DNA of 38,310 bases from a phage (PX946180.1), one strand, 5' to 3'. Shown: positions 1 through 38,310, counted from the first letter of the stretch. Made by a program: numbers and translations. The notes: generated by a model from the sequence alone, not told the origin.

Positions 1-857
1 GGGCATATTCGCAAGCAGGAGATTCCAGAGGTTCGACTCAAATCCTGATTAGTGATTGCCACACCGGCGATAACACTAAGATTGATATTTACGTGTACAA
101 CGAAATCGGAAGCCTGTCTGAGATACTGATATCCAACCCTATGGTGCGAAGAACCACGCAACCAGATGGTGCCGTAATAGCCCTTCAGGGGACTCGCGTA
201 AGCTGTAATGGTGGCAGCATTGTTAAGTCTGGCGACAGACTAACAGTACCGTGCTTCTCTCTGTTTAATACAGATAGTGCAGCTGTGCGTGGGGTTACAG
301 TTGGTAATGTGGGGCAATTCCTGAGTCAGTCAGGGGCTAACAACTCCCTTGTTGCTAACTGTACTGTGAACTGTAGCATTGTAGGAATAGGAGGGGAAGG
401 CACTACCTATGTAGGTAATAAATTCATTCATGGTGGTGCAGGCACAACAGATGTTGCAATTGATGCCTCGACATCTATTAACTATATTCTTTCCAATACC
501 TTCTCTGGTTTCTATCGTAATATATCTTGGAACTCACAAGCCATGAGTATTGTAGGTAATGTGAGTACAGGAACAACTGATGTATCATTGCGTATGTTTG
601 GGGATGGTATTCAGTTGCTAACCCATTCAGGTAATAAATGGGATGCGGCGAGTAACCCCGCCATCGTTGCTACAGTTAAACGTGAAGGATCCACTACCGC
701 TAAAGCTACCGCTTATGCTAGCGCAGCCCCTACTACCCTAACGTGGTCTATTGGTGACAGGGTAATCAATAATACCCCCGCTGTAGGTAGCCCGAAAGGT
801 TGGGTGTGCATCGCTTCCGGAACTCCTGGAACGTGGGTTAGCGAAGGTAATTTGTAA
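1..857 (+). CDS. tail fiber/tailspike, 3' part (continuation of the ORF starting at 36692 across the contig overlap); beta-helix depolymerase-like C-terminal region
   Basis: Same reading frame as 36692..38310 once the 127-bp terminal overlap is collapsed; Gly/Asn/Thr/Ser-rich repeats typical of right-handed beta-helix tailspikes; stop codon ends at 857. Confidence 0.85.
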   Translation, partial: AYSQAGDSRGSTQILISDCHTGDNTKIDIYVYNEIGSLSEILISNPMVRRTTQPDGAVIALQGTRVSCNGGSIVKSGDRLTVPCFSLFNTDSAAVRGVTVGNVGQFLSQSGANNSLVANCTVNCSIVGIGGEGTTYVGNKFIHGGAGTTDVAIDASTSINYILSNTFSGFYRNISWNSQAMSIVGNVSTGTTDVSLRMFGDGIQLLTHSGNKWDAASNPAIVATVKREGSTTAKATAYASAAPTTLTWSIGDRVINNTPAVGSPKGWVCIASGTPGTWVSEGNL

Positions 858-1947: not shown

Positions 1948-2374
1948 TTACTACAAAGTGGACCAGGCGAGTCCATCCGGTCTGGTCTCCGTTAGGACTG
2001 GAAAGCCTGTGGGGACGTTAAGTCGGATGGGATATTGGATAGTACAGACACGAAGTCTAGGCAGTAAGCGGGCACATCGCGTGATATGGGAACTAACCAA
2101 TGGTCCTATACCACATGGTATGCAAATAGACCACATCGACAGGAATCCCAGCAATAATACCTTAAGTAACTTACGGCTCGTTACTGCCGCTGAGAACACT
2201 TGGAATACTGGTAGCCATTATGACTCTAAGACAGGAGTGAAGTGCGTTACCCGTCACCAGAATGGTTATAGGATTCAGGTTAAACGCGGTAATGTCTATA
2301 TGCGAACAACACGTCCTACTTTAGAGGAGGCTATCTCTGTCCGGGACCTAATGCTGGAGGGACTCTATGTCTAA
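1937..2374 (+). CDS. HNH homing endonuclease (HNH_3 motif plus AP2-like DNA-binding region)
   Basis: 145 aa; motif [37 protein letters not shown]; overlaps Rz stop and large terminase start; T7 has no gene here. Confidence 0.85.
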
Positions 2375-4133
2375 GAAAACACCTGTTGAAAGACAGGCAG
2401 AAATGACCCAAAGGATGAGGGACGATTTCGTGTTCTTCATCTTCGTTCTCTGGAAAGCTCTTAGCCTTCCGGTTCCAACCCGCTGCCAGATAGATATGTG
2501 TAAGAAGCTGGCTGCTGGGGATAATCGCCGCTTCATCCTTCAGGCGTTCCGTGGTATTGGCAAGTCGTTTCTGACCTGTGGTTTCGTGGTCTGGAAACTA
2601 TGGAACAACCCAGACTTGAAGTTCATGATTGTGTCGGCCTCAAAGGAACGAGCCGATGCGAACTCCATCTTCATCAAGAGAATCATCGACCTCATGCCTC
2701 AGCTTCAGGAACTCAAACCTAAGCAGGGACAGCGAGATGCGGTTATCAGCTTCGACGTTGGGCCAGCCAAGCCAGACCACTCACCTTCTGTTAAGTCCGT
2801 TGGTATCACTGGTCAGTTGACTGGTAGTCGTGCTGACATACTGATTGCAGATGACGTGGAGGTTCCTAATAACTCTGCGACTCAGGCTGCACGAGACCGT
2901 CTGTCAGAGCTTGTGAAAGAGTTCGACGCTATCCTGAAGCCGGGAGGTACAATCATCTATCTGGGTACGCCTCAGAACGAGATGACCCTGTATCGTGAGC
3001 TGGAGGGTCGCGGCTATACGACGACTATCTGGCCTGCACGTTACCCTCGAGATAAGAAGGACTGGCAGTCTTACGGCGACCGTCTGGCTCCTATGCTTCA
3101 GGCAGAGCTGGAAGAGGACCCTGAATCCTTCTACTGGCGTCCGACCGATGAGGTACGATTCGATGATACGGACCTGAAGGAACGTGAGCTGTCCTATGGT
3201 AAGGCTGGCTTCGCGCTACAGTTCATGCTTAACCCGAACCTGAGTGATGCTGAGAAGTACCCTCTGAAGCTCCGTGACCTTATCGTAGCCGACTTGGACC
3301 CAGCGTCCAGCCCAATGGTCTACCAATGGTTGCCAAACCCTCAGAACAAGCGTGAGGACGTTCCTAACGTTGGACTCATGGGTGACTCATACCACACGTA
3401 TCAGACTGTAGGTTCTGCCTTCAGTTCGTACACCCAGAAGATTCTGGTCATTGACCCTAGTGGTCGTGGTAAGGATGAAACTGGTTATGCGGTACTGTAT
3501 CAGCTAAACGGCTACATCTTCGCTATGGAAGTTGGTGGTATGCGTGGTGGTTATGAAGACTCTACGCTGGAAGCCTTGGCTAAGATTGGTCGTAAGTGGA
3601 AGGTCAACGAATACGTCATTGAGGGTAACTTCGGTGATGGTATGTACCTTGAGCTATTCAAGCCTGTAGCGGCACGTATCCATCCTGCTGCTGTAACTGA
3701 AGTGAAGAGTAAGGGTCAGAAAGAACTCCGCATCTGTGACGTTCTGGAGCCTATCATGGGGTCTCACCGACTTATCGTTAACGCTTCTGCTATCGTCCAA
3801 GACTACCAGACAGCCTCTGATAAGGACGGCGTTCGTAACCCTATCTACTCTCTCTTCTACCAGATGACACGTATCTCTCGTGAACGTGGAGCCTTGGCAC
3901 ATGATGACCGACTTGATGCTCTGGCTATAGGTGTACAGTTCTTCGTTGAGTCTATGGCTAAGGATGCCAACAAAGGCGAACGTGAAGTCACTGAGGAGTG
4001 GCTGGAGGAACAGATGGAGAACCCACGGAAAGGCTTCGAGTCCATCCACACTGAGTTCTGGGACAATGGTGTCCGGGTAACTCACGATACGGGCGATGAG
4101 CTTGGGCTAGGGTCATACGTTACGTTCCACTAG
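2367..4133 (+). CDS. terminase large subunit (T7 gp19-like)
   Basis: 588 aa, collinear with recalled T7 gp19 (586 aa); Walker A-like GIGKS and nuclease region present. Confidence 0.95.
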
Positions 4134-4227
4134 CTGAATGAATAACTATAGGTGAAAGCTGCATGAATACGCAGTTAGTAACCTATAGTTACTACCAGTC
4201 TAACCTACTGTTTTACAAGGAGTTTGG

Positions 4228-5636: not shown

Positions 5637-6143
5637 ATGGAACGTAACGCTAACGCATACTATGACCTGCTGGCTGCAACCGTTAAAGCATTTAACGAAC
5701 GTATTCGGTCCGACGAAATAGCTGAAGGTGATGACTACCACGATGCGCTGCATGAAGTCGTAGACGGTCAGGTTCCGCTCTATTACCACGAGATTTTTAC
5801 GGTGATGGCTGCTGATGGCATAGACCACGAGTTCGAAGACTCTGGGCTGATGCCTGAGACCAAGGACGTAACGCGCATACTGCAAGCTCGCATCTATGAG
5901 GCACTGTATAACGACGTGTCTAATAGCTCGGATGTGGTCTGGTTTGAGGCTGAAGAGAGCGACGAAGGGGATAAGTATTGGGTAGTTGACGCTAAAACGG
6001 GACTATTCGTTGAGCAAGCTGTACCTCTTGAGGTCGCTATTGCATCTGCCAAAGACCTCTATGCGGTAGGTCATCACATGAAAGTCGAAGACATTAACGA
6101 TAACGTAGTGTTCGACCCTGCGGCTGAAGAGGACTGCGAGTGA
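5637..6143 (+). CDS. ocr: Ocr-like anti-restriction DNA mimic (gene 0.3) with extra ~65-aa C-terminal extension
   Basis: 168 aa; VPLYYHEIFTVMAADGIDHEFEDSGLMPETKDVTRILQARIYE closely matches recalled T7 Ocr core; first gene after the early promoter region. Confidence 0.85.
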   Translation: MERNANAYYDLLAATVKAFNERIRSDEIAEGDDYHDALHEVVDGQVPLYYHEIFTVMAADGIDHEFEDSGLMPETKDVTRILQARIYEALYNDVSNSSDVVWFEAEESDEGDKYWVVDAKTGLFVEQAVPLEVAIASAKDLYAVGHHMKVEDINDNVVFDPAAEEDCE

Positions 6144-7256: not shown

Positions 7257-9104
7257 ATGAGCGTCATCTCTATTGACAAACACGACTTCTCTGATGTGTC
7301 GAACGCCATTGAGCCGTTTAACCTGCTGGCTGACCACTACGGGCAAGACCTCGCAGTAAAGCAGCTTCAGCTTGAGCATGAGGCATACACTGAAGGCGAG
7401 CGACGTTTCATCAAGAACCTTGAGCGCCAGACTGAGCGCGGGGAACTGGCAGACAATCAGGTCGCCAAGCCTTTGATGCAGACTCTGGTCCCGACCATCG
7501 CTAAGGCTTTCCGTGAGTGGCATGAAGGCCCGGACGGTAAGTCCTCGACCTCTCGTCCAAGCGTAGCGTTCACCATGCTGAGCACTGACGAGAAGGCTGT
7601 CAAAGACCGCTCTCTGCTCATCTCTGCGGAGTCTGCTGCGGTCATCATACTGAAGGTCATTCTCAGCAAGCTGGTCAAGCCTGAAGGCATCCCGATAACT
7701 CCTATGGCGTCCGCGATAGGTCGAACACTGGAAGATGAAATCCGCTTTGGTCGCATCCGTGATCAGGAGAAGGAGCACTTCAAGAAGGCGATAGCTGAGA
7801 ACCTGAACAAGCGCGCAGGGGTATCCTACAAGAAAGCCTACATGCAAGCGGTTGAGACCTCCATGTTGGAGCAAGGCCAACTGGAAGATGCCTGGGGAAC
7901 TTGGAGTCCGACCGAGGCGGTCCATGTTGGCATCAAGATGCTTGAGATTGTCATCCAGTCTACTCAACTGGTAGAGCTTAAGCGTTATGGTGCTGGCAAT
8001 GCAGCGGCGGACGTTGAGATGGTCCACCTGTCAGACTTCTGGGTCAAGAAGATGGCTCAGCGTGGCTTCTCTCTTGCGGGAATCGCTCCAGTCTACCAGC
8101 CATGCGTAGTTCCGCCTAAGCCGTGGACCGGGGTGGTGGGTGGTGGGTACTGGGCTAAAGGCCGAAGACCACTACCACTGATTCGCTTAGGGTCTAAGTC
8201 TGCGGTGGCACGTTACGAAGATGTATACATGCCTGAAGTCTACGACGCTGTGAATATCATTCAGAATACACCTTGGAAAGTGAACAAGAAGGTTCTGAAC
8301 GTGGTGAACATGGTCGAGAAGCTGAACAACACGCCTATTGATGACATCCCTCAGATGGAACCGCTGAAGCCTGAGGACTATGCGGGTGAGACTGAAGAAG
8401 AACTTAAGGCATGGAAGAAAGCTGCTGCCGGTATCTATCGCCGCGAGAAGGCCCGACAGTCACGAAGATTGTCACTGAGCTTTATCGTTAACCAAGCGAA
8501 CAAGTTCTCTCAGTTCAAGGCTATCTGGTTCCCGTATAACATGGATTGGCGAGGTCGTGTCTACGCTGTCCCGATGTTCAACCCTCAGGGTAACGACATG
8601 CAAAAGGGACTCCTGACTCTGGCAGTCGGTAAGCCTATTGGTGCTGATGGTTTCAAATGGCTGAAGGTACGCAAGAAGGATACCACTCGTCTGAACCTGA
8701 TGTTCTTAGGGTCATTCAACCTTCAGCCTACAGTCAACAAAGGCGCGAAGAAAGAGCTTGACAAACACAAGCAGGAGTCAGGTATTAGCCCGAACTTCGT
8801 CCACTCACAAGATGGCAGTCACCTCCGCAAGACTGTAGTCCACACGCACCGCAAGTATGGCGTGATGTCGTTCGCAGTGATCCACGATAGCTTCGGGACC
8901 ATCCCGGCTGACGCTGAGTATCTGTTCCGTGGTGTCCGTGAGACGATGGTCGAGACCTACCGCGACAACGATGTGCTGCTTGACTTCTATGAGCAGTTTG
9001 AATACCAGCTTCATGAGAGCCAGCGCGACAAGCTGCCAGAGCTTCCGAAGAAAGGTGAACTGAATATCGAAGACATCCTGTCTTCAGACTTTGCATTCGC
9101 TTAA
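7257..9104 (+). CDS. T7-like single-subunit RNA polymerase with ~268-codon internal in-frame deletion (catalytic motifs A and B missing; probably non-functional)
   Basis: 615 aa versus 883 aa for T7 RNAP; N-terminal ~464 aa and C-terminal ~151 aa are collinear with T7 (promoter-binding domain, specificity loop, HKQESG..FVHSQDGSHLRK, IHDSFGT, terminal FAFA); junction GFKWLK/VRKKDTTRLNLMFLG at about 8664-8669; no DGSCSG or TLAYGS motif anywhere in the ORF. Confidence 0.85.
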   Translation: MSVISIDKHDFSDVSNAIEPFNLLADHYGQDLAVKQLQLEHEAYTEGERRFIKNLERQTERGELADNQVAKPLMQTLVPTIAKAFREWHEGPDGKSSTSRPSVAFTMLSTDEKAVKDRSLLISAESAAVIILKVILSKLVKPEGIPITPMASAIGRTLEDEIRFGRIRDQEKEHFKKAIAENLNKRAGVSYKKAYMQAVETSMLEQGQLEDAWGTWSPTEAVHVGIKMLEIVIQSTQLVELKRYGAGNAAADVEMVHLSDFWVKKMAQRGFSLAGIAPVYQPCVVPPKPWTGVVGGGYWAKGRRPLPLIRLGSKSAVARYEDVYMPEVYDAVNIIQNTPWKVNKKVLNVVNMVEKLNNTPIDDIPQMEPLKPEDYAGETEEELKAWKKAAAGIYRREKARQSRRLSLSFIVNQANKFSQFKAIWFPYNMDWRGRVYAVPMFNPQGNDMQKGLLTLAVGKPIGADGFKWLKVRKKDTTRLNLMFLGSFNLQPTVNKGAKKELDKHKQESGISPNFVHSQDGSHLRKTVVHTHRKYGVMSFAVIHDSFGTIPADAEYLFRGVRETMVETYRDNDVLLDFYEQFEYQLHESQRDKLPELPKKGELNIEDILSSDFAFA

Positions 9105-24128: not shown

Positions 24129-25013
24129 ATGTCTCAATCAGTTTATGCCGAGTTCGGCGTTAGCTCTAATGCAATCACTGGTTCCGTTGAGGACCTGAAC
24201 GAACACCAGAAGTCTATGCTTGAACAGGACGTAGCTGTTCGTGATGGCGATGACGCTATTACCTTCAAGCAACTGGAAGCCGAGAACGAAGAGGCGACCG
24301 AAGAAGACGAGAACGTCGAAGAGACTGAAGGTGAAGACGACCACGAGTCCGATGACGAAGAGTCAGAGACCGATGGTGAGCAGCCTGAGTTCATCGAACT
24401 TGGTGATGCACCGAAAGAGCTGACCGAAAGTGTCGCCGCTCTTGATGAAAACGAAGCCGCATTCGACGACATGGTGTCTTCTGCTGTAGAAGCTGGCAAG
24501 GTCACTGCTGATGAAATTACCGCTATCAAGGCCGAATACGCCAAGGACGGTAAGCTGTCTGACGCATCCTACGCTAAGTTGCAGGAAGCAGGTTACACCA
24601 AGCGTTTCGTAGATTCGTTTGTCCGTGGTCAGGAAGCTCTGGCTGAACAGTACGCTGCTGGTGTGGTTCGCTATGCTGGTGGTGCTGAACAGTTTAATCG
24701 CATCCTGTCACACCTTGAGTCTAACGACCCGTCAACTCGTGAAGCACTGGAAGCTGCTATCGTTCGTAAGGACATTGCTACTACCAAAGCTCTGCTGAAT
24801 CTGGCTGGCAAGACTCTGGGTAAAGCTGTAGGCGTCAAACCTCAGCGTACCATCACCACTCAGGCTAAACCTGTGGTCGCACCTAAGGCTCCTCAGACCG
24901 AAGCATTCAGCTCCAAGGCTGACATGATTAAGGCTATGAGTGACCCGCGATACCTGCGTGACGCTAAGTACACGATGGAAGTTCGCGCTAAGGTAGCCGC
25001 CTCAAGCCTGTAG
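24129..25013 (+). CDS. capsid assembly scaffolding protein (T7 gp9-like)
   Basis: 294 aa from ATG 24129 (AAGGAG 9 nt upstream; tracker ORF starts at an upstream TTG); highly acidic middle; SYAKL.E.GYTK.F.DS..RGQEAL.EQY and KAMSDPRY match recalled T7 gp9. Confidence 0.92.
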   Translation: MSQSVYAEFGVSSNAITGSVEDLNEHQKSMLEQDVAVRDGDDAITFKQLEAENEEATEEDENVEETEGEDDHESDDEESETDGEQPEFIELGDAPKELTESVAALDENEAAFDDMVSSAVEAGKVTADEITAIKAEYAKDGKLSDASYAKLQEAGYTKRFVDSFVRGQEALAEQYAAGVVRYAGGAEQFNRILSHLESNDPSTREALEAAIVRKDIATTKALLNLAGKTLGKAVGVKPQRTITTQAKPVVAPKAPQTEAFSSKADMIKAMSDPRYLRDAKYTMEVRAKVAASSL

Positions 25014-25139: not shown

Positions 25140-25839
25140 ATGGCAAACGTTCCGGGTCAGAAAATTGGTACAGACCAAGGTAAAGGCAAATCCAGTTCCG
25201 ACGCTAATGGCTCTCCTGTGTAACCTCCCGGCTGCATCCAACGAGAACATTGCCGGTCTGGGCACTGCGTCAGTACTTGAAGTTGGTACTAAAGCCGACC
25301 TGAACACTCCGGCTAAGCTGGGTGAAGCAATCATCGGTCAACTGACCATTGCTCGTGCGAAGCTGACCTCCAACTACGTTCCTGCTGGCGACCGTTACTT
25401 CTACACCACGCCGGACAACTACTCTGCAATCCTCGCGGCTCTGATGCCGAACGCTGCCAACTATGCTGCGCTGATTGACCCAGAGACTGGTAACATCCGT
25501 AACGTGATGGGCTTCGTTGTTGTTGAAGTCCCGCATCTGGTGCAGGGTGGTGCTGGTGAGACCCGTGGTGACGATGGCATCACTATCGCTTCCGGCCAGA
25601 AACACGCATTCCCGGCGACTGCTGCTGACGATGTTAAAGTTGCTATGGACAACGTTGTGGGTCTGTTCTCTCACCGTTCTGCTGTGGGTACTGTGAAGCT
25701 GCGTGACTTGGCGCTGGAACGTGACCGTGACGTCGATGCTCAGGGCGACCTGATTGTTGGTAAGTACGCTATGGGTCACGGCGGCCTGCGTCCAGAAGCG
25801 GCAGGCGCACTGGTTTTCACAGCGGCGCTGGGGGGTTAA
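25140..25839 (+). pseudogene. major capsid protein gene (gene 10A), disrupted: first 16 codons and last ~205 codons present, ~120 central codons missing, junction out of frame
   Basis: ATG 25140 with RBS encodes MANVPGQKIGTDQGKG (matches the recalled T7 gp10 N-terminus) then stops at 25221-25223 after 27 codons; the +1 frame from about 25213 encodes LCNLPAASNENIAGLGTAS... to the stop at 25839, collinear with T7 gp10A residues ~145-345; only ~810 nt separate the phi10 start site from the capsid stop. Confidence 0.8.
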
Positions 25840-26102
25840 CGACCTTTAAGGCCCTCTCTACAGAGGGTCCTACCTTAGAGATGTACAGTTCTACGGTGGG
25901 GACCAGCCTGAAGGTTGACTTCCCTGAGCTTTCAGATGTGACCGATTGGTCGCTGCTTGAGGTGACTACGCCTGATGGTGTTAGCTACTCCCGTAGAACC
26001 AACAGTCTCTACTTCAAGGCCACCTCTGGCGTGGAAGGTCTAGTGATTGTTGAGTATGACGGTTCGCCTGTGCGTTCCTTCAACGTATCTTTCACAAACT
26101 AA
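25812..26102 (+). CDS. minor capsid 10B C-terminal extension reached by -1 programmed frameshift at GGTTTTC
   Basis: Slippery heptamer G GTT TTC at 25812-25818, five codons before the 10A stop, the same site as in T7; the -1 frame is open from there to the stop at 26102 (tracker ORF 25881..26102 is its 3' part); extension is rich in beta-strand-like residues. Confidence 0.65.
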   Translation, partial: GFHSGAGGLTTFKALSTEGPTLEMYSSTVGTSLKVDFPELSDVTDWSLLEVTTPDGVSYSRRTNSLYFKATSGVEGLVIVEYDGSPVRSFNVSFTN

Positions 26103-26105
26103 TTG

Positions 26106-26148
26106 AAACCCCTTGGGTGCCTTCGGGTGCTTGAGGGGTTTTTTTTGC
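26106..26148 (+). terminator. rho-independent terminator, T7 Tphi equivalent
   Basis: AACCCCTTGGGTGCCTTCGGGTGCTTGAGGGGTTTTTTTT: GC-rich hairpin followed by a run of eight T; directly after the capsid gene as T7 Tphi is. Confidence 0.85.
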
Positions 26149-26161
26149 TTAAGGAGGTCCT

Positions 26162-26728
26162 ATGGCTCAATACATTCCACTGAATGCTAACGATGACTTA
26201 GATGCCATCAACGATATGTTAGCTGCTATCGGTGAACCAGCAGTCCTGCAGCTTGACGAAGGTAACGCTGACGTCTCGAACGCACAACGTATCCTGCATC
26301 GTGTCAATCGTCAGGTCCAAGCTAAAGGCTGGAACTTTAACATCAACGAAGCTGCTGTACTGACACCTGATGTCCAAGACAATAGGATTCGATTCCTGCC
26401 GTCATACCTTCGTGTAATGACTGCCGGGGCCACCAGCTACTACAGCAACATGGGTGGATACCTGTACGACCTATCCACTCAGTCAACCACTTTCACCGAC
26501 CCTATAACGGTAGAGCTTGTTGAGATGAAACCGTTCTCTGAGATGCCTGTGGTATTCAGGGACTACATCGTTACCAAGGCCAGCCGTGAGTTCAACGCTA
26601 AGTTCTTCGGTAGCCCAGAGTCTGAACTGTACCTTCGTGAGCAGGAAGCAGAACTCTATCAGCAGGTCATGGAATACGAGATGGACACTGGTCGCTACAA
26701 CATGATGTCCGACATCGGGAGGGACTAA
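26162..26728 (+). CDS. tail tubular protein A (T7 gp11-like)
   Basis: 188 aa; IGEP, NA.RIL..NRQ.Q..GW.FNI.E, TKASR.FN..FFG.PE and EYEMD.G.YNM match recalled T7 gp11. Confidence 0.92.
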   Translation: MAQYIPLNANDDLDAINDMLAAIGEPAVLQLDEGNADVSNAQRILHRVNRQVQAKGWNFNINEAAVLTPDVQDNRIRFLPSYLRVMTAGATSYYSNMGGYLYDLSTQSTTFTDPITVELVEMKPFSEMPVVFRDYIVTKASREFNAKFFGSPESELYLREQEAELYQQVMEYEMDTGRYNMMSDIGRD

Positions 26729-26955
26729 TGGCAGCGCATAATCTGAAGATTCACCGCCAGCACTTTGGTCCGGTACAACTAGGCCTAAAGACAGCAGAAC
26801 TGAGACTTAACGACCGGGACTTTAAGGTTGGCGACTGGCTTATCCTGAATGAGTGGGACAACGGGTATACTGGGCAACAGGTAGCACGTAAGGTTGTCCA
26901 CATTGCTGACGTTGGTGACATCGCTGAGGGATACGTCCTAATGAGTATGATTTAA
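26728..26955 (+). CDS. small ASCH/DUF3850-like protein inserted between tail tubular genes
   Basis: 75 aa; pattern H..HFGPV..G.KTAELRLNDRDFKVGDWLILNEWD..YTG resembles the DUF3850/ASCH small PUA-like fold as I recall it; T7 gp11 and gp12 are adjacent with no gene between. Confidence 0.55.
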   Translation: MAAHNLKIHRQHFGPVQLGLKTAELRLNDRDFKVGDWLILNEWDNGYTGQQVARKVVHIADVGDIAEGYVLMSMI

Positions 26956-26964
26956 GGAGGGCCT

Positions 26965-29322
26965 ATGCCACTAATTACTCAATCAATCAAGAACCTTAAA
27001 GGTGGTATTAGCCAGCAGCCAGACATACTGAGGTTCTCAGACCAAGGCGAGGCGCAAGTTAACTGCTGGTCATCCGAAAGTGATGGACTCCAGAAGCGTC
27101 CACCTACAGTCTTCAAGCGACGTCTTAGCATCGACGTTGGGAGCAACCCTAAGTTCCACCTGATTAACCGTGATGAGCAGGAGCAGTATTACATCGTGTT
27201 CAACGGGTCCAACATTCAGGTAGTTGACTTGAGTGGTAATCAATACTCAGTTTCAGGTGCGGTAGATTACGTTGAGTCGTCCAACCCGCGAGATGACATC
27301 CGTGTCGTTACCGTTGCAGACTATACGTTCGTAGTTAACCGTAAGGTTGTAGTCAAAGGTGGAAGCGAGAAGTCACACTCTGGCTATAACCGCAAAGCAC
27401 GAGCTTTAATTAACCTGCGTGGTGGACAGTATGGTAGAACCCTTAAGGTGGGAATCAACGGAGGCGTTAAGGTCTCGCATAAGTTACCAGCAGGTAATGA
27501 TGCCGAGAATGACCCACCTAAGGTGGACGCTCAAGCCATTGGTGCAGCTCTGAGAGACCTTCTTGTTGCTGCCTATCCTACCTTCACGTTTGACCTTGGG
27601 TCTGGCTTCCTGCTAATCACAGCTCCTTCAGGGACCGACATTAACTCAGTGGAGACGGAGGATGGCTACGCTAACCAGCTAATAAGCCCAGTCCTAGACA
27701 CTGTGCAGACAATCTCTAAACTACCTCTTGCCGCTCCTAATGGATATATCATTAAGATTCAAGGTGAGACCAACAGTAGCGCCGATGAATACTACGTGAT
27801 GTATGACTCCAACACTAAGACGTGGAAGGAGACAGTGGAGCCGGGAGTTGTCACTGGGTTCGATGTCACCACAATGCCACATGCTCTTGTCAGACAGTCT
27901 GATGGCTCCTTTGAGTTCAAGACTCTGGATTGGTCCAAGCGTGGCTCTGGCAACGATGACACAAACCCTATGCCTAGCTTCGTGGATGCTGCGATTAATG
28001 ATGTGTTCTTCTACAGGAACAGACTTGGGTTCTTGTCAGGTGAGAACGTAATCATGAGCCGTTCAGCCAGCTACTTTGCGTTCTTCCCTAAGAGTGTGGC
28101 TACACTGAGCGATGATGACCCTATTGATGTAGCTGTAAGTCACCCTCGAATCTCAATCCTTAAGTATGCCGTTCCGTTTAGCGAGCAGCTACTACTTTGG
28201 TCGGATGAGGTGCAGTTCGTGATGACAAGCTCTGGGGTACTTACCTCGAGGTCTATCCAGCTTGATGTAGGCTCAGAGTTTGCCTTAGGCGACAATGCCA
28301 GACCGTTCGCTGTAGGACGCTCAGTCTTCTTCTCAGCGCCTCGTGGGTCATTCACCAGCATTAAGCGATACTTCGCTGTAGCTGATGTGTCTGATGTGAA
28401 GGATGCCGATGATACAACTGGTCACGTACTGTCCTACATCCCTAACGGGGTGTTTGATATTCAAGGTACAGGGACTGAGAACTACATCTGCGTCAACTCT
28501 ACAGGTGCATACAACCGAATCTACATCTACAAGTTCTTGTTTAAGGACGGCGTACAGCTTCAAGCCTCTTGGTCGCACTGGGAGTTCCCTAAAGCTGATA
28601 AGATTCTGGCGTCTGCGTCGATTGGCTCTACCATGTTCATTGTTCGTCAGCACCAAGGCGGCGTGGACCTTGAGCACCTTAAGTTCATCAAGGAGGCAAC
28701 TGACTTTCCATTAGAGCCGTATAGACTCCACGTTGACTCCAAGGTGTCTATGGTAATACCAATTGGCTCATACAACGCTGACACCTATAAGACTACGGTT
28801 GACATTGGCGCTGCTTATGGTGGCAACGCTCCGTCTCCCGGTCGGTACTATCTTATTGACAGTCAGGGTGCTTATGTGGACCTTGGGGACTTGACCAGTA
28901 GCTCTACTGTGGTTATCCTCAACGGCGATTGGTCAGGACGTACAGTGTTCATCGGACGGTCCTATCTGATGTCCTACAAGTTCTCACGGTTCCTGATTAA
29001 GATTGAAGATGATAGTGGCACTCAGTCTGAAGACACGGGTCGTCTACAGCTTCGTCGGGCTTGGGTCAACTACAAAGACACTGGCGCTCTGAGACTAATT
29101 GTCAGAAACGGTGAGCGGGAGTTCGTGAATACCTTCAACGGGTACACCCTTGGGCAGCAAACCATCGGGACTACAAACATCGGTGACGGGCAGTATCGCT
29201 TCGCTATGAATGGTAACGCATTAACCACGAGTCTAACCTTAGAGTCTGACTATCCTACCCCAGTGTCAATCGTTGGGTGTGGCTGGGAGGCGTCATACGC
29301 TAAGAAAGCTCGTTCCGTCTAA
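26965..29322 (+). CDS. tail tubular protein B (T7 gp12-like)
   Basis: 785 aa; N-terminus LITQSIKNLKGGISQQPDILR and internal motifs (DPIDVAVS, ILKYAVPFSE, GRLQLRRAWVNY, IVGCGWE) match recalled T7 gp12. Confidence 0.95.
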   Translation: MPLITQSIKNLKGGISQQPDILRFSDQGEAQVNCWSSESDGLQKRPPTVFKRRLSIDVGSNPKFHLINRDEQEQYYIVFNGSNIQVVDLSGNQYSVSGAVDYVESSNPRDDIRVVTVADYTFVVNRKVVVKGGSEKSHSGYNRKARALINLRGGQYGRTLKVGINGGVKVSHKLPAGNDAENDPPKVDAQAIGAALRDLLVAAYPTFTFDLGSGFLLITAPSGTDINSVETEDGYANQLISPVLDTVQTISKLPLAAPNGYIIKIQGETNSSADEYYVMYDSNTKTWKETVEPGVVTGFDVTTMPHALVRQSDGSFEFKTLDWSKRGSGNDDTNPMPSFVDAAINDVFFYRNRLGFLSGENVIMSRSASYFAFFPKSVATLSDDDPIDVAVSHPRISILKYAVPFSEQLLLWSDEVQFVMTSSGVLTSRSIQLDVGSEFALGDNARPFAVGRSVFFSAPRGSFTSIKRYFAVADVSDVKDADDTTGHVLSYIPNGVFDIQGTGTENYICVNSTGAYNRIYIYKFLFKDGVQLQASWSHWEFPKADKILASASIGSTMFIVRQHQGGVDLEHLKFIKEATDFPLEPYRLHVDSKVSMVIPIGSYNADTYKTTVDIGAAYGGNAPSPGRYYLIDSQGAYVDLGDLTSSSTVVILNGDWSGRTVFIGRSYLMSYKFSRFLIKIEDDSGTQSEDTGRLQLRRAWVNYKDTGALRLIVRNGEREFVNTFNGYTLGQQTIGTTNIGDGQYRFAMNGNALTTSLTLESDYPTPVSIVGCGWEASYAKKARSV

Positions 29323-29346
29323 CTTATTGAATGGCCTATAGATTTA

Positions 29347-29369
29347 CCTTAACTATCACTATAGGGACT
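29347..29369 (+). promoter_or_regulatory. phage RNAP promoter (phi13-like), +1 G at 29364
   Basis: CCTTAACTATCACTATAGGGACTA. Confidence 0.8.
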
Positions 29370-36691: not shown

Positions 36692-38310
36692 ATGTCCACG
36701 ATTACACAATTCCCTTCAGGAAACACTCAGTACAGGATTGAGTTCGACTACCTAGCCAGAACGTTTATTGTTGTTACGCTGGTGAATAGCTCTAACCCTA
36801 CCCTGAACCGTGTACTGGAAGTTGGTCGAGATTACCGATTCCTTAATCCAACGATGCTTGAGATGTTGGTTGACCAATCAGGTTTCGACATCGTTCGTAT
36901 TCACCGTCAGACTGGAACTGACTTAGTGGTAGACTTCAGGAATGGCTCAGTGTTGACAGCTAGTGACCTGACCAATGCAGAGCTTCAGGCTATCCATATT
37001 GCAGAAGAAGGTCGAGACCAAACTGTTGACTTAGCGAAGGAATATGCCGATGCTGCTGGTAACTCTGCTGGCAACGCTAAGGACAGCGAGGACGAAGCAC
37101 GCCGAATCGCTGAGAGTATCAAGGCAGCTGGTCTAACTGGCTATATTACCCGTAGATCCTTCGAGAAAGGCTTCAACGTTACAACATGGAACGAGGTCCT
37201 GCTATGGGAGGATGATGGTGAATATTACCGCTGGGATGGTACGCTCCCAAAGAACGTTCCTGCTGGCTCAACTCCTGAATCATCTGGTGGAATTGGATTA
37301 GGAGCGTGGGTTAGTGTTGGTGATGCATCGCTGAGATCTCAGATAGCCTCCGTAACCGGATTTAATCTTGTAGGTCAGGTGCCAGATGTAACTACATTAC
37401 GCAATACAGAACCGACAACAGACAGCAAGAGAATCCTCCTTCGCGAATACACAGCAGGCACAGGATATGGTGGCGGTCAGTTACGAGCAATCCTTGACGG
37501 AAGCTCTTACGTTGACAACGGCGTTACTGTGTTTAAAACAACTGGTGGTGCTGCATGGGTCCGCGTTAACGCAGATATCATTACATCCTTCATGGCGGGT
37601 GCTGTGCCTGATGCAGGTACTACTGATAACACGGCTGCTATTAATCGCTTCCTCGCCGCAGGTAAGAAATTGGTTATGAGGGATGGTATCTTTGGTCATT
37701 CTGGTCAAATTTCTTTGCAAACAGGTATATCTCTTGATTTATCTGGAGCGACAATAAAACCATCATCGACTCTACTCACCGCTGCTTGGGTGGGGAGCAA
37801 CTTGTTTGATGTAAAAATAACCGGCGGCGTGTTTGAAGGAACTGGCTTGGACAATACAGCTGGCAACGGCCATCTTTTGCTGCTTTCTAATTGCCAAGGG
37901 TGCTACGTAGATGGCACTACATTTACGAAATCTCCGCAGGATGGATTGCGATTTGTATCTTGTACACGATGTATTGCGAGTAACGCTATTTCGTACAACA
38001 ACCTTTCTGTAGGTATTCAAGACCGCGATGGGGATTACAACACTATCATTGGGTGTAAATGTAACGGTAATGGTAATACAGGAACGGTTGCTGGAGTTGG
38101 TGGTCGAGGTATTCTCACATGGCGTAGCTTTGGCACAAAAGTTATCGCCTGTGACGCGTTCAATAACACAGAGTATGGCATTCGGGCATATTCGCAAGCA
38201 GGAGATTCCAGAGGTTCGACTCAAATCCTGATTAGTGATTGCCACACCGGCGATAACACTAAGATTGATATTTACGTGTACAACGAAATCGGAAGCCTGT
38301 CTGAGATACT
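36692..38310 (+). CDS. tail fiber/tailspike, 5' part (T7 gp17-like N-terminal adaptor plus start of beta-helix domain); continues at 1..857
   Basis: ATG 36692 with AAGGAGG RBS; N-terminal ~150 aa resemble the recalled T7 gp17 tail-attachment domain (FDYLAR.F.VVTL, DYRF, LV.DF..GS.L.A.DL, HIAEE.RD); frame stays open to the window end and continues at position 1; total about 782 aa. Confidence 0.9.
   Translation, partial: MSTITQFPSGNTQYRIEFDYLARTFIVVTLVNSSNPTLNRVLEVGRDYRFLNPTMLEMLVDQSGFDIVRIHRQTGTDLVVDFRNGSVLTASDLTNAELQAIHIAEEGRDQTVDLAKEYADAAGNSAGNAKDSEDEARRIAESIKAAGLTGYITRRSFEKGFNVTTWNEVLLWEDDGEYYRWDGTLPKNVPAGSTPESSGGIGLGAWVSVGDASLRSQIASVTGFNLVGQVPDVTTLRNTEPTTDSKRILLREYTAGTGYGGGQLRAILDGSSYVDNGVTVFKTTGGAAWVRVNADIITSFMAGAVPDAGTTDNTAAINRFLAAGKKLVMRDGIFGHSGQISLQTGISLDLSGATIKPSSTLLTAAWVGSNLFDVKITGGVFEGTGLDNTAGNGHLLLLSNCQGCYVDGTTFTKSPQDGLRFVSCTRCIASNAISYNNLSVGIQDRDGDYNTIIGCKCNGNGNTGTVAGVGGRGILTWRSFGTKVIACDAFNNTEYGIRAYSQAGDSRGSTQILISDCHTGDNTKIDIYVYNEIGSLSEI
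38184..38310 (+). repeat. assembly overlap: exact copy of positions 1-127 (circular contig artifact)
   Basis: Direct comparison: 38184-38310 is identical to 1-127 and lies inside the tail fiber coding sequence. Confidence 0.9.

Follow-up and report, generated by a model that had tools for sequence, protein, structure and literature searches.

The window analysed here, a stretch of phage DNA of 38,310 nucleotides taken at its full length, carries a small gene between the genes for its two tail tubular proteins. The features that define the locus are the following.

26105..26150, + strand: T-phi-like intrinsic terminator, a 17-bp stem with a T run, upstream of gp11
26162..26728, + strand: gp11, tail tubular protein A / adaptor (Pfam Tube, E 3.6e-46; PHROG 446)
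26717..26730, + strand: Shine-Dalgarno (SD) sequence GGGAGGG and TAATG stop/start overlap, the upstream copy of an imperfect direct repeat, GGAGGGaCTaATG
26728..26955, + strand: DUF3850 ORF, a gene of the '11.05' type, 75 aa, 8.5 kDa, pI 6.4, a stand-alone domain
26956..26967, + strand: SD sequence GGAGGG and gp12 ATG, the downstream copy of the direct repeat, GGAGGGcCT-ATG
26965..29322, + strand: gp12, tail tubular protein B / nozzle (Pfam Phage_nozzle, 1093 bits, E 0; PHROG 457)
29345..29367, + strand: first downstream phage-RNAP promoter-like 23-mer (phi13 equivalent), repeat family D1, 11 copies

In the ORF listing of the window, 26728..26955 (+) is a single ORF with an ATG start codon, whose A is shared with the gp11 stop codon (TAATG, 26726-26730) and whose SD sequence (26717-26723) lies inside the 3' end of gp11. 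The stop codon TAA (26953-26955) is followed directly by GGAGGG-CCT-ATG of gp12 (GGAGGG, 26956-26961), leaving a gap of 9 nt between the two genes. The initial annotation had placed a 75-aa ORF exactly between the tail tubular A and B genes, and the coordinates and the flanking Pfam Tube and Phage_nozzle matches confirm this position. It had also called genes 11 and 12 neighbours in T7, correctly: nothing but a 23-nt spacer lies between them in the T7 annotation, and the DUF3850 gene is an extra relative to T7. The ORF is a real gene, far beyond chance, as it scores 70.4 bits against Pfam DUF3850 (PF12961; E 1.5e-19) vs a gathering cut-off of 22.9, recurs in near-identical form in about 155 phage records (155 by tblastn with a copy at least 80% identical) and has dN/dS values of 0.07-0.17.

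The window phage is a K1F-like member of the genus Kayfunavirus (Autographiviridae, Studiervirinae): identity of the region to sequenced members reaches 96.6%, and the DUF3850 protein is 100% identical to the copy in Kayfunavirus PDP351P4. The gene itself is already known. It has been called in more than 100 relatives, under public labels that vary from hypothetical protein and DUF3850 protein to RNA-binding protein and activating signal cointegrator, and the record of CR44b names the locus gene 11.05. Synteny speaks for the gene as well: far from being absent or disrupted in all relatives, it is kept intact in most of them.

The sequence of the window is circularly permuted, starting inside the tail-fibre gene 17 (93..857), with the terminase at 2367..4133, ocr at 5637..6143 and the true genome ends near 4.9-5.1 kb of the window. 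An exact 127-nt repeat at the window ends (1-127 and 38184-38310) is not the phage terminal repeat and resembles a k-mer overlap left by an assembler. Two essential genes carry disruptive deletions. The major capsid gene 10 (25142-25839) is broken: 350 nt that are present in JSS1, EcoDS1 and phiHAO1-1 are missing, a length not divisible by 3, with the junction at 25205/25206. The frame opened by the ATG at 25142 is closed by a stop some 27 codons on, and the remainder lies in another frame. This deletion is shared by 0 of the best 12 of 220 matching phage records, and the broken gene is either an assembly artefact or the mark of a defective genome. The phage RNA polymerase gene 1 (7257-9104) is about 835 nt shorter than in EcoDS1, JSS1 and phiHAO1-1, a length that is likewise not divisible by 3; the junction is at 8668/8670, and the ORF has 615 aa vs about 893 aa expected. 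Two further ORFs vary among relatives: an HNH homing-endonuclease ORF (1937-2374; PHROG 99, E 4.8e-40), located between the spanin and terminase large-subunit genes, is common to only some of them, and a 73-aa ORF (25881-26102; PHROG 7473), located between the capsid gene and the T-phi-like terminator, is found in only about half of ten genomes compared.

The transcription signals around the DUF3850 gene are sparse. A 23-nt promoter-like sequence with the consensus CTAAACTATCACTATAGGGA occurs in 11 copies in the window (at 4226, 7163, 9860, 11553, 12663, 15128, 21212, 24033, 25013, 29345 and 36621), placed as are the annotated promoters of EcoDS1 and CR44b. The copies at 25013 and 29345 precede genes 10 and 13, respectively, and no other copy falls between them; neither a convincing sigma-70 site nor a terminator is seen in or next to 26728-26955. 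The strong terminator-like hairpin ahead of gp11 covers 26105-26142, and equivalents of this terminator and of phi13 are annotated at the same place in EcoDS1 and T7. In T7, it is read-through of T-phi that allows genes 11 and 12 to be expressed. With a T-phi-like terminator upstream and no promoter before 29345, the DUF3850 gene would by analogy be a late gene made via terminator read-through at a modest, gp11/gp12-like level, and capsid-like expression is unlikely. This layout, with which those of EcoDS1 and T7 agree, speaks against the high late expression first proposed for the gene. Nor does the gene behave as the moron that it was suggested to be: it carries neither a promoter nor a terminator, its start overlaps the stop codon of gp11, only 9 nt separate it from gp12, and its translation would be coupled within the operon.

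The product consists of a single, minimal DUF3850 domain and belongs to the ASCH/PUA-like superfamily, whose fold the initial annotation had proposed and which profile searches, a sequence match to a crystal structure and the predicted structure all bear out. Residues 3-73 align with positions 1-76 of the 77 in PF12961, and the Pfam ASCH profile (PF04266) also matches, at 26.2 bits (E 1.4e-5) vs a threshold of 21.2. An NCBIfam search of the protein gave no match. In PHROG the ORF falls into family 986, 'RNA-binding protein', a label that there and in RefSeq reflects homology only. Among proteins of known structure, Enterococcus faecalis PDB 3IUW is matched by phmmer at 1e-10 with the single sequence and at 2.4e-23 with a profile. 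AlphaFold2, run on 24 homologues, gives a model with a mean pLDDT of 84, which drops to a mean of 64 across residues 21-30, exactly at the conserved motif, and Foldseek superimposes the model on 3IUW with TM 0.86-0.89, rmsd 1.3-1.5 Å and probability 1.00. The next matches are the ASCH proteins YqfB and PH0355, followed by YTH domains of the PUA-like superfamily; a BFVD search returned many phage DUF3850/ASCH proteins.

A putative polar pocket is densely conserved. Seventeen positions (H4, K7, F13, G19, K21, E24, R26, N28, D29, R30, G35, D36, L40, E42, G49, V70 and S73, with L6 also counted with the set) are conserved family-wide, that is, in at least 90% of 92 distant homologues (also measured on 45), and the window protein keeps all 17. 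They include an intact pocket motif, G19-x-K21-x-x-E24-x-R26, N28-D29-R30 and E42, along with H4, K7, D36, G49 and S73. The first segment, G19-L-K21-T-A-E24-L-R26 in the window protein, conforms to GxKxxExR, reportedly the signature motif of ASCH domains. Stand-alone DUF3850 proteins are mildly acidic, with a median pI of 6.0 (6.4 in the window protein), which disfavours generic coating of a polyanion or RNA; a base or nucleotide pocket fits better.

The gene evolves under purifying selection. Its dN/dS is 0.11 among 15 close genomes and, against three diverged genomes, takes the values of 0.07-0.17 given above, comparable to those of gp12 (0.06-0.14). Homologues occupy the gp11-gp12 slot in diverged T7-like phages, with amino acid identities of 61% in Pectobacterium phage LET1, 69% in a Logan contig and 43% in CR44b, and in all three the 1-nt overlap with gp11 is present. 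The divergence of these copies tracks that of gp12 (70-75%) and gp13 (64-67%) and, being of the same order, suggests that the gene is an old resident that has descended together with its neighbours, not a recent capture. The CR44b gene 11.05 (L104, 22053-22277) and the LET1 copy (L005, 4001-4219) are intact ORFs that have lost the otherwise invariant N-D-R, and the CR44b copy additionally lacks K7 and E24; this loss suggests that constraint may have been relaxed, or function changed, in some lineages.

Synonymous diversity in the cassette is low. Among 14 close genomes pS is 0.111, whereas the 75-codon windows of gp11 and gp12, 166 in number, never fall below 0.146 (median 0.231). An embedded RNA element does not account for this: the fold of 26690-26975 has no extra stability over shuffled sequences (z +0.52), and a search of the whole window against Rfam matched no family. 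The cassette may have spread recently by recombination.

Presence of the gene is polymorphic. In the type species K1F, gp11 and gp12 overlap directly as TAATG with no gene between them, and K1F-type empty junctions are also found in pO2, ZG49, ST1749, phiHAO2-2, Esher2 and R1; among the 60 records that most resemble the K1F junction, 26 have this empty form. In carriers, the 237-nt cassette is bracketed by the imperfect direct repeat, which consists of the two ribosome binding sites with their start codons, and excising the stretch between both ATGs yields the K1F junction exactly. Every carrier keeps the upstream SD sequence and TAATG, and so do the K1F-type empty sites, in which they serve gp12. 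The empty site of the Cronobacter phage Dev2 is different: the gp11 TAA is followed by T and then by AGGAGGTGAT-ATG. In Dev2 (L093, 590-630), gp12 has its own SD sequence and the Gly-Arg codons at the gp11 end are GGT CGA, elsewhere GGG AGG; the synonymous change, seen in this one genome, removes the SD-like sequence and is consistent with an SD role for the following gene elsewhere. By published coordinates, the Citrobacter phages SH3, SH4 and SH5 have a Dev2-like empty site (PMC4925675).

Both gp12 5' haplotypes occur with and without the cassette, which rules out a single ancient indel without later recombination. Given the two types of empty junction and the presence of both haplotypes in both classes, sequence comparison indicates that the gene was lost or gained independently at least twice and that recombination took part; it has probably been lost more than once. 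Since K1F, ZG49, Dev2 and SH3 do without it, at two different empty-site junctions, the gene is dispensable; the gp11/gp12 flanks of non-carriers are about 94-96% identical in DNA to those of carriers. An endonuclease VII/HNH gene lies between the DUF3850 gene and gp12 in Hafnia phage yong1 (L004, 1940-2380) and in Enterobacter phage B1, where it is ORF41 (PMC12785254), and these inserts mark the gp11/gp12 junction as an insertion hot spot. In a comparison of 5 carrier and 5 non-carrier genomes, DUF3850 was the only family with a 5/0 distribution, no family was 0/5, and no co-varying partner gene was found. A tie to K1-capsule specificity is ruled out, as endosialidase phages occur in both classes.

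The virion data bear on where the protein acts. Mass-spectrometry flags in the CR44b record cover gp7.3, 8, 9, 10A, 11, 12, 14, 15, 16, 17 and 17.01, thus including an 82-aa protein, gp7.3, while 11.05 is unflagged. The 75-aa ORF40 of phage B1 is not among the proteins found in excised bands (PMC12785254). Both negatives are to be read with the size of the protein in mind, as 8.5 kDa is easily missed in either analysis, the CR44b copy being moreover only 43% identical and motif-degenerate and the B1 study relying on band excision. Virion proteomics of SH3 and SH4 is uninformative, both phages being without the gene. Nor is the gene universal among phages that build the same tail, being absent from T7, K1F, ZG49, ST1749, phiHAO2-2, pO2, R1, Esher2 and Dev2. 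The proposal that the product is delivered with the virion thus finds no backing in the CR44b flags or in relatives whose nearly identical flanks enclose no such gene.

Homologues elsewhere reside in replication/recombination ('nin'-type) modules and not in structural ones. Among 47 non-redundant neighbours of DUF3850 genes on other viral contigs, the families that could be recognised are NinG, RusA, HNH, primases and an SNF2 helicase, and also a Dam methylase, NUDIX, DUF1064 and Ead/Ea22. In fusions to a ParB CTPase domain, which adjoin parA, DUF3850 takes the slot usually held by the DNA-binding HTH of ParB (bioRxiv 10.1101/2025.10.10.680097), and these fusions are enriched in prophages (bioRxiv 10.1101/2025.10.10.680097 / PNAS 2025). 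A pocket of PUA/ASCH domains typically accommodates a base, flipped or free (PMC12191111; bioRxiv 10.64898/2026.01.15.699771), and within this range ASCH, EVE and YTH domains are the modified-base sensors of type IV restriction enzymes (PMC12191111), a pocket of the PUA/ASCH clan binds the m6-dAMP that triggers PUA-Cal-HAD defence (bioRxiv 10.64898/2026.01.15.699771), and an ASCH/PUA domain is also a scaffold of a 5hmC glycosylase (bioRxiv 10.64898/2026.02.25.707755). In the last preprint, ZmASCH is cited as an ssRNA-specific RNase (bioRxiv 10.64898/2026.02.25.707755).

The reading that we favour, with a probability of roughly 60%, is that the gene encodes a cytoplasmic, late-made accessory protein that binds a base, a nucleotide or a nucleic acid and does not enter the virion. 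The gene's only transcript would be the gp11-gp12 message that results from read-through of the T-phi-like terminator, and its translation would be coupled to gp11 through TAATG and the GGGAGGG SD sequence. The protein would stay in the infected cell, where its conserved polar and aromatic pocket would bind a base, nucleotide or short nucleic acid, possibly modified, and might also process the bound ligand. The benefit may be conditional on circumstances and not needed for plaque formation, which would explain loss on at least two occasions.

More specific roles are all improbable, each in its own degree. A counter-defence sponge or decoy, in which the small PUA-like protein would soak up or degrade an alarm signal that is a modified mononucleotide, or would mask a modified base, is unlikely, even though the defence systems just cited supply both a signal and sensors: m6-dAMP, for example, could arise from digestion of Dam-methylated host DNA by T7-type nucleases, and its removal would blunt PUA/ASCH/EVE sensor systems. 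A small, slightly acidic protein that is dispensable and patchily distributed and has a dense, polar, conserved pocket also bears the usual signature of anti-defence. Against this, PADLOC-DB gives only a marginal match (PDC-M07B, E 0.0074, 14 bits over 34 residues), the gene sits behind a terminator and would be expressed late, whereas T7-like phages typically make their anti-defence proteins early, and the 5 vs 5 comparison revealed no carrier-specific partner gene or host pattern. There is only a slim chance that the stand-alone DUF3850 protein is a counter-defence factor that captures or hydrolyses a modified nucleotide or base signal and so silences host systems that sense this ligand with PUA/ASCH domains; if it were, the repeated loss and the possible recent spread among Kayfunaviruses would reflect the distribution of such systems among hosts.

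An amidohydrolase of the YqfB/EOLA1 type, which would deacylate N4-acetylcytidine or a related nucleoside in late nucleotide salvage, is a doubtful candidate. YqfB is the second-best structural match (9KYF, probability 0.98, TM 0.62), its pI is similarly acidic, and the many invariant polar residues of the DUF3850 protein suggest catalysis. The catalytic residues of YqfB are Lys21, Thr24, Arg26 and Glu74 (PMC9599836), two of which, K21 and R26, align by hhalign with K21 and R26 of the window protein. However, the sequence match is marginal (E 0.08-0.11), the nucleophile Thr24 is replaced by Glu, and the 75 residues hold no counterpart of the C-terminal half that bears Glu74; on these grounds the protein is not taken to be a YqfB-type enzyme.

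Similarly hard to credit is an RNA-binding regulator of the gp11-gp12 mRNA or of another late transcript, which might set, e.g., the gp11:gp12 ratio. RNA binding is the traditional prediction for ASCH domains, in line with the PHROG 986 label and with ZmASCH as cited in the preprint above, and the gene is directly upstream of gp12, whose initiation is coupled or independent depending on the gene. Yet the protein is acidic, the local RNA carries neither a structure signal nor an Rfam match, homologues elsewhere are not beside structural genes, and phages without the gene assemble the same tail.

A virion- or tail-associated role, as a chaperone of gp11/gp12 assembly or, in the idea of the initial annotation, as an ejected factor, is very improbable: location inside the tail operon and translational coupling to gp11 recommend it, but 11.05 was unflagged where gp7.3 was seen, the protein was not found in the B1 bands, phages of the K1F and Dev2 types build nearly identical gp11 and gp12 without it, and the fold is one that binds nucleic acids or bases, in a family found elsewhere in replication modules. 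Functionless selfish cargo at an insertion hot spot, carried, e.g., by homing-endonuclease traffic, is just as remote, since the endonuclease genes of yong1 and B1, the presence/absence polymorphism and the motif decay in CR44b and LET1 are set against strong purifying selection, retention of all the conserved residues in the great majority of copies and a gene that usually stands alone, without any endonuclease.

The finding is correct and ordinary, in that the gene is already named in public genomes and its Pfam family has a crystal structure. A literature search (DUF3850, ASCH in phages, Kayfunavirus RNA-binding protein, ASCH anti-defence) found no functional study of the gene and no experiment on any DUF3850 protein. 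Dozens of near-isogenic phages that differ by exactly the 237-nt cassette constitute a clean natural experiment on DUF3850, and a comparison of carriers with non-carriers in host range and ligand binding could give the domain its first function.

Among known systems, the ParB-CTPase-DUF3850 fusions contain the same Pfam domain, one enriched in phages, but they bind CTP via the ParB fold, whereas the window DUF3850 stands alone, with no ParA or ParB nearby. E. coli YqfB (PDB 1TE7/9KYF), an ASCH N4-acetylcytidine amidohydrolase, is likewise a small PUA-like beta-barrel protein of acidic pI and shares the N-terminal GxKxxxxR segment with its aligned Lys and Arg; it differs in the nucleophile and in having a helical C-terminal half. 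PDB 3IUW, the E. faecalis V583 'activating signal cointegrator' NP_814290 solved by structural genomics, belongs to the same Pfam family and fold, is 34-37% identical and shares the K-T-x-E-x-R-x-N-D-R motif with the window protein, but it is a bacterial or prophage protein from outside any tail operon. Gene 11.05 of the Citrobacter phage CR44b holds the same slot at only 43% identity and without the N-D-R motif, whereas the window copy is of the common, intact type. The closest counterparts are the identically placed ORFs of other Kayfunaviruses, EcoDS1 AS9_0040, LM33_P1 gp38, JSS1 AOZ65208, phiHAO1-1 gp39 and those of PE3-1, ST31 and vB_EcoP_F, which have in common with the window gene the slot between genes 11 and 12, the TAATG overlap and a length of 74-75 aa, at identities mostly of 95-100%.
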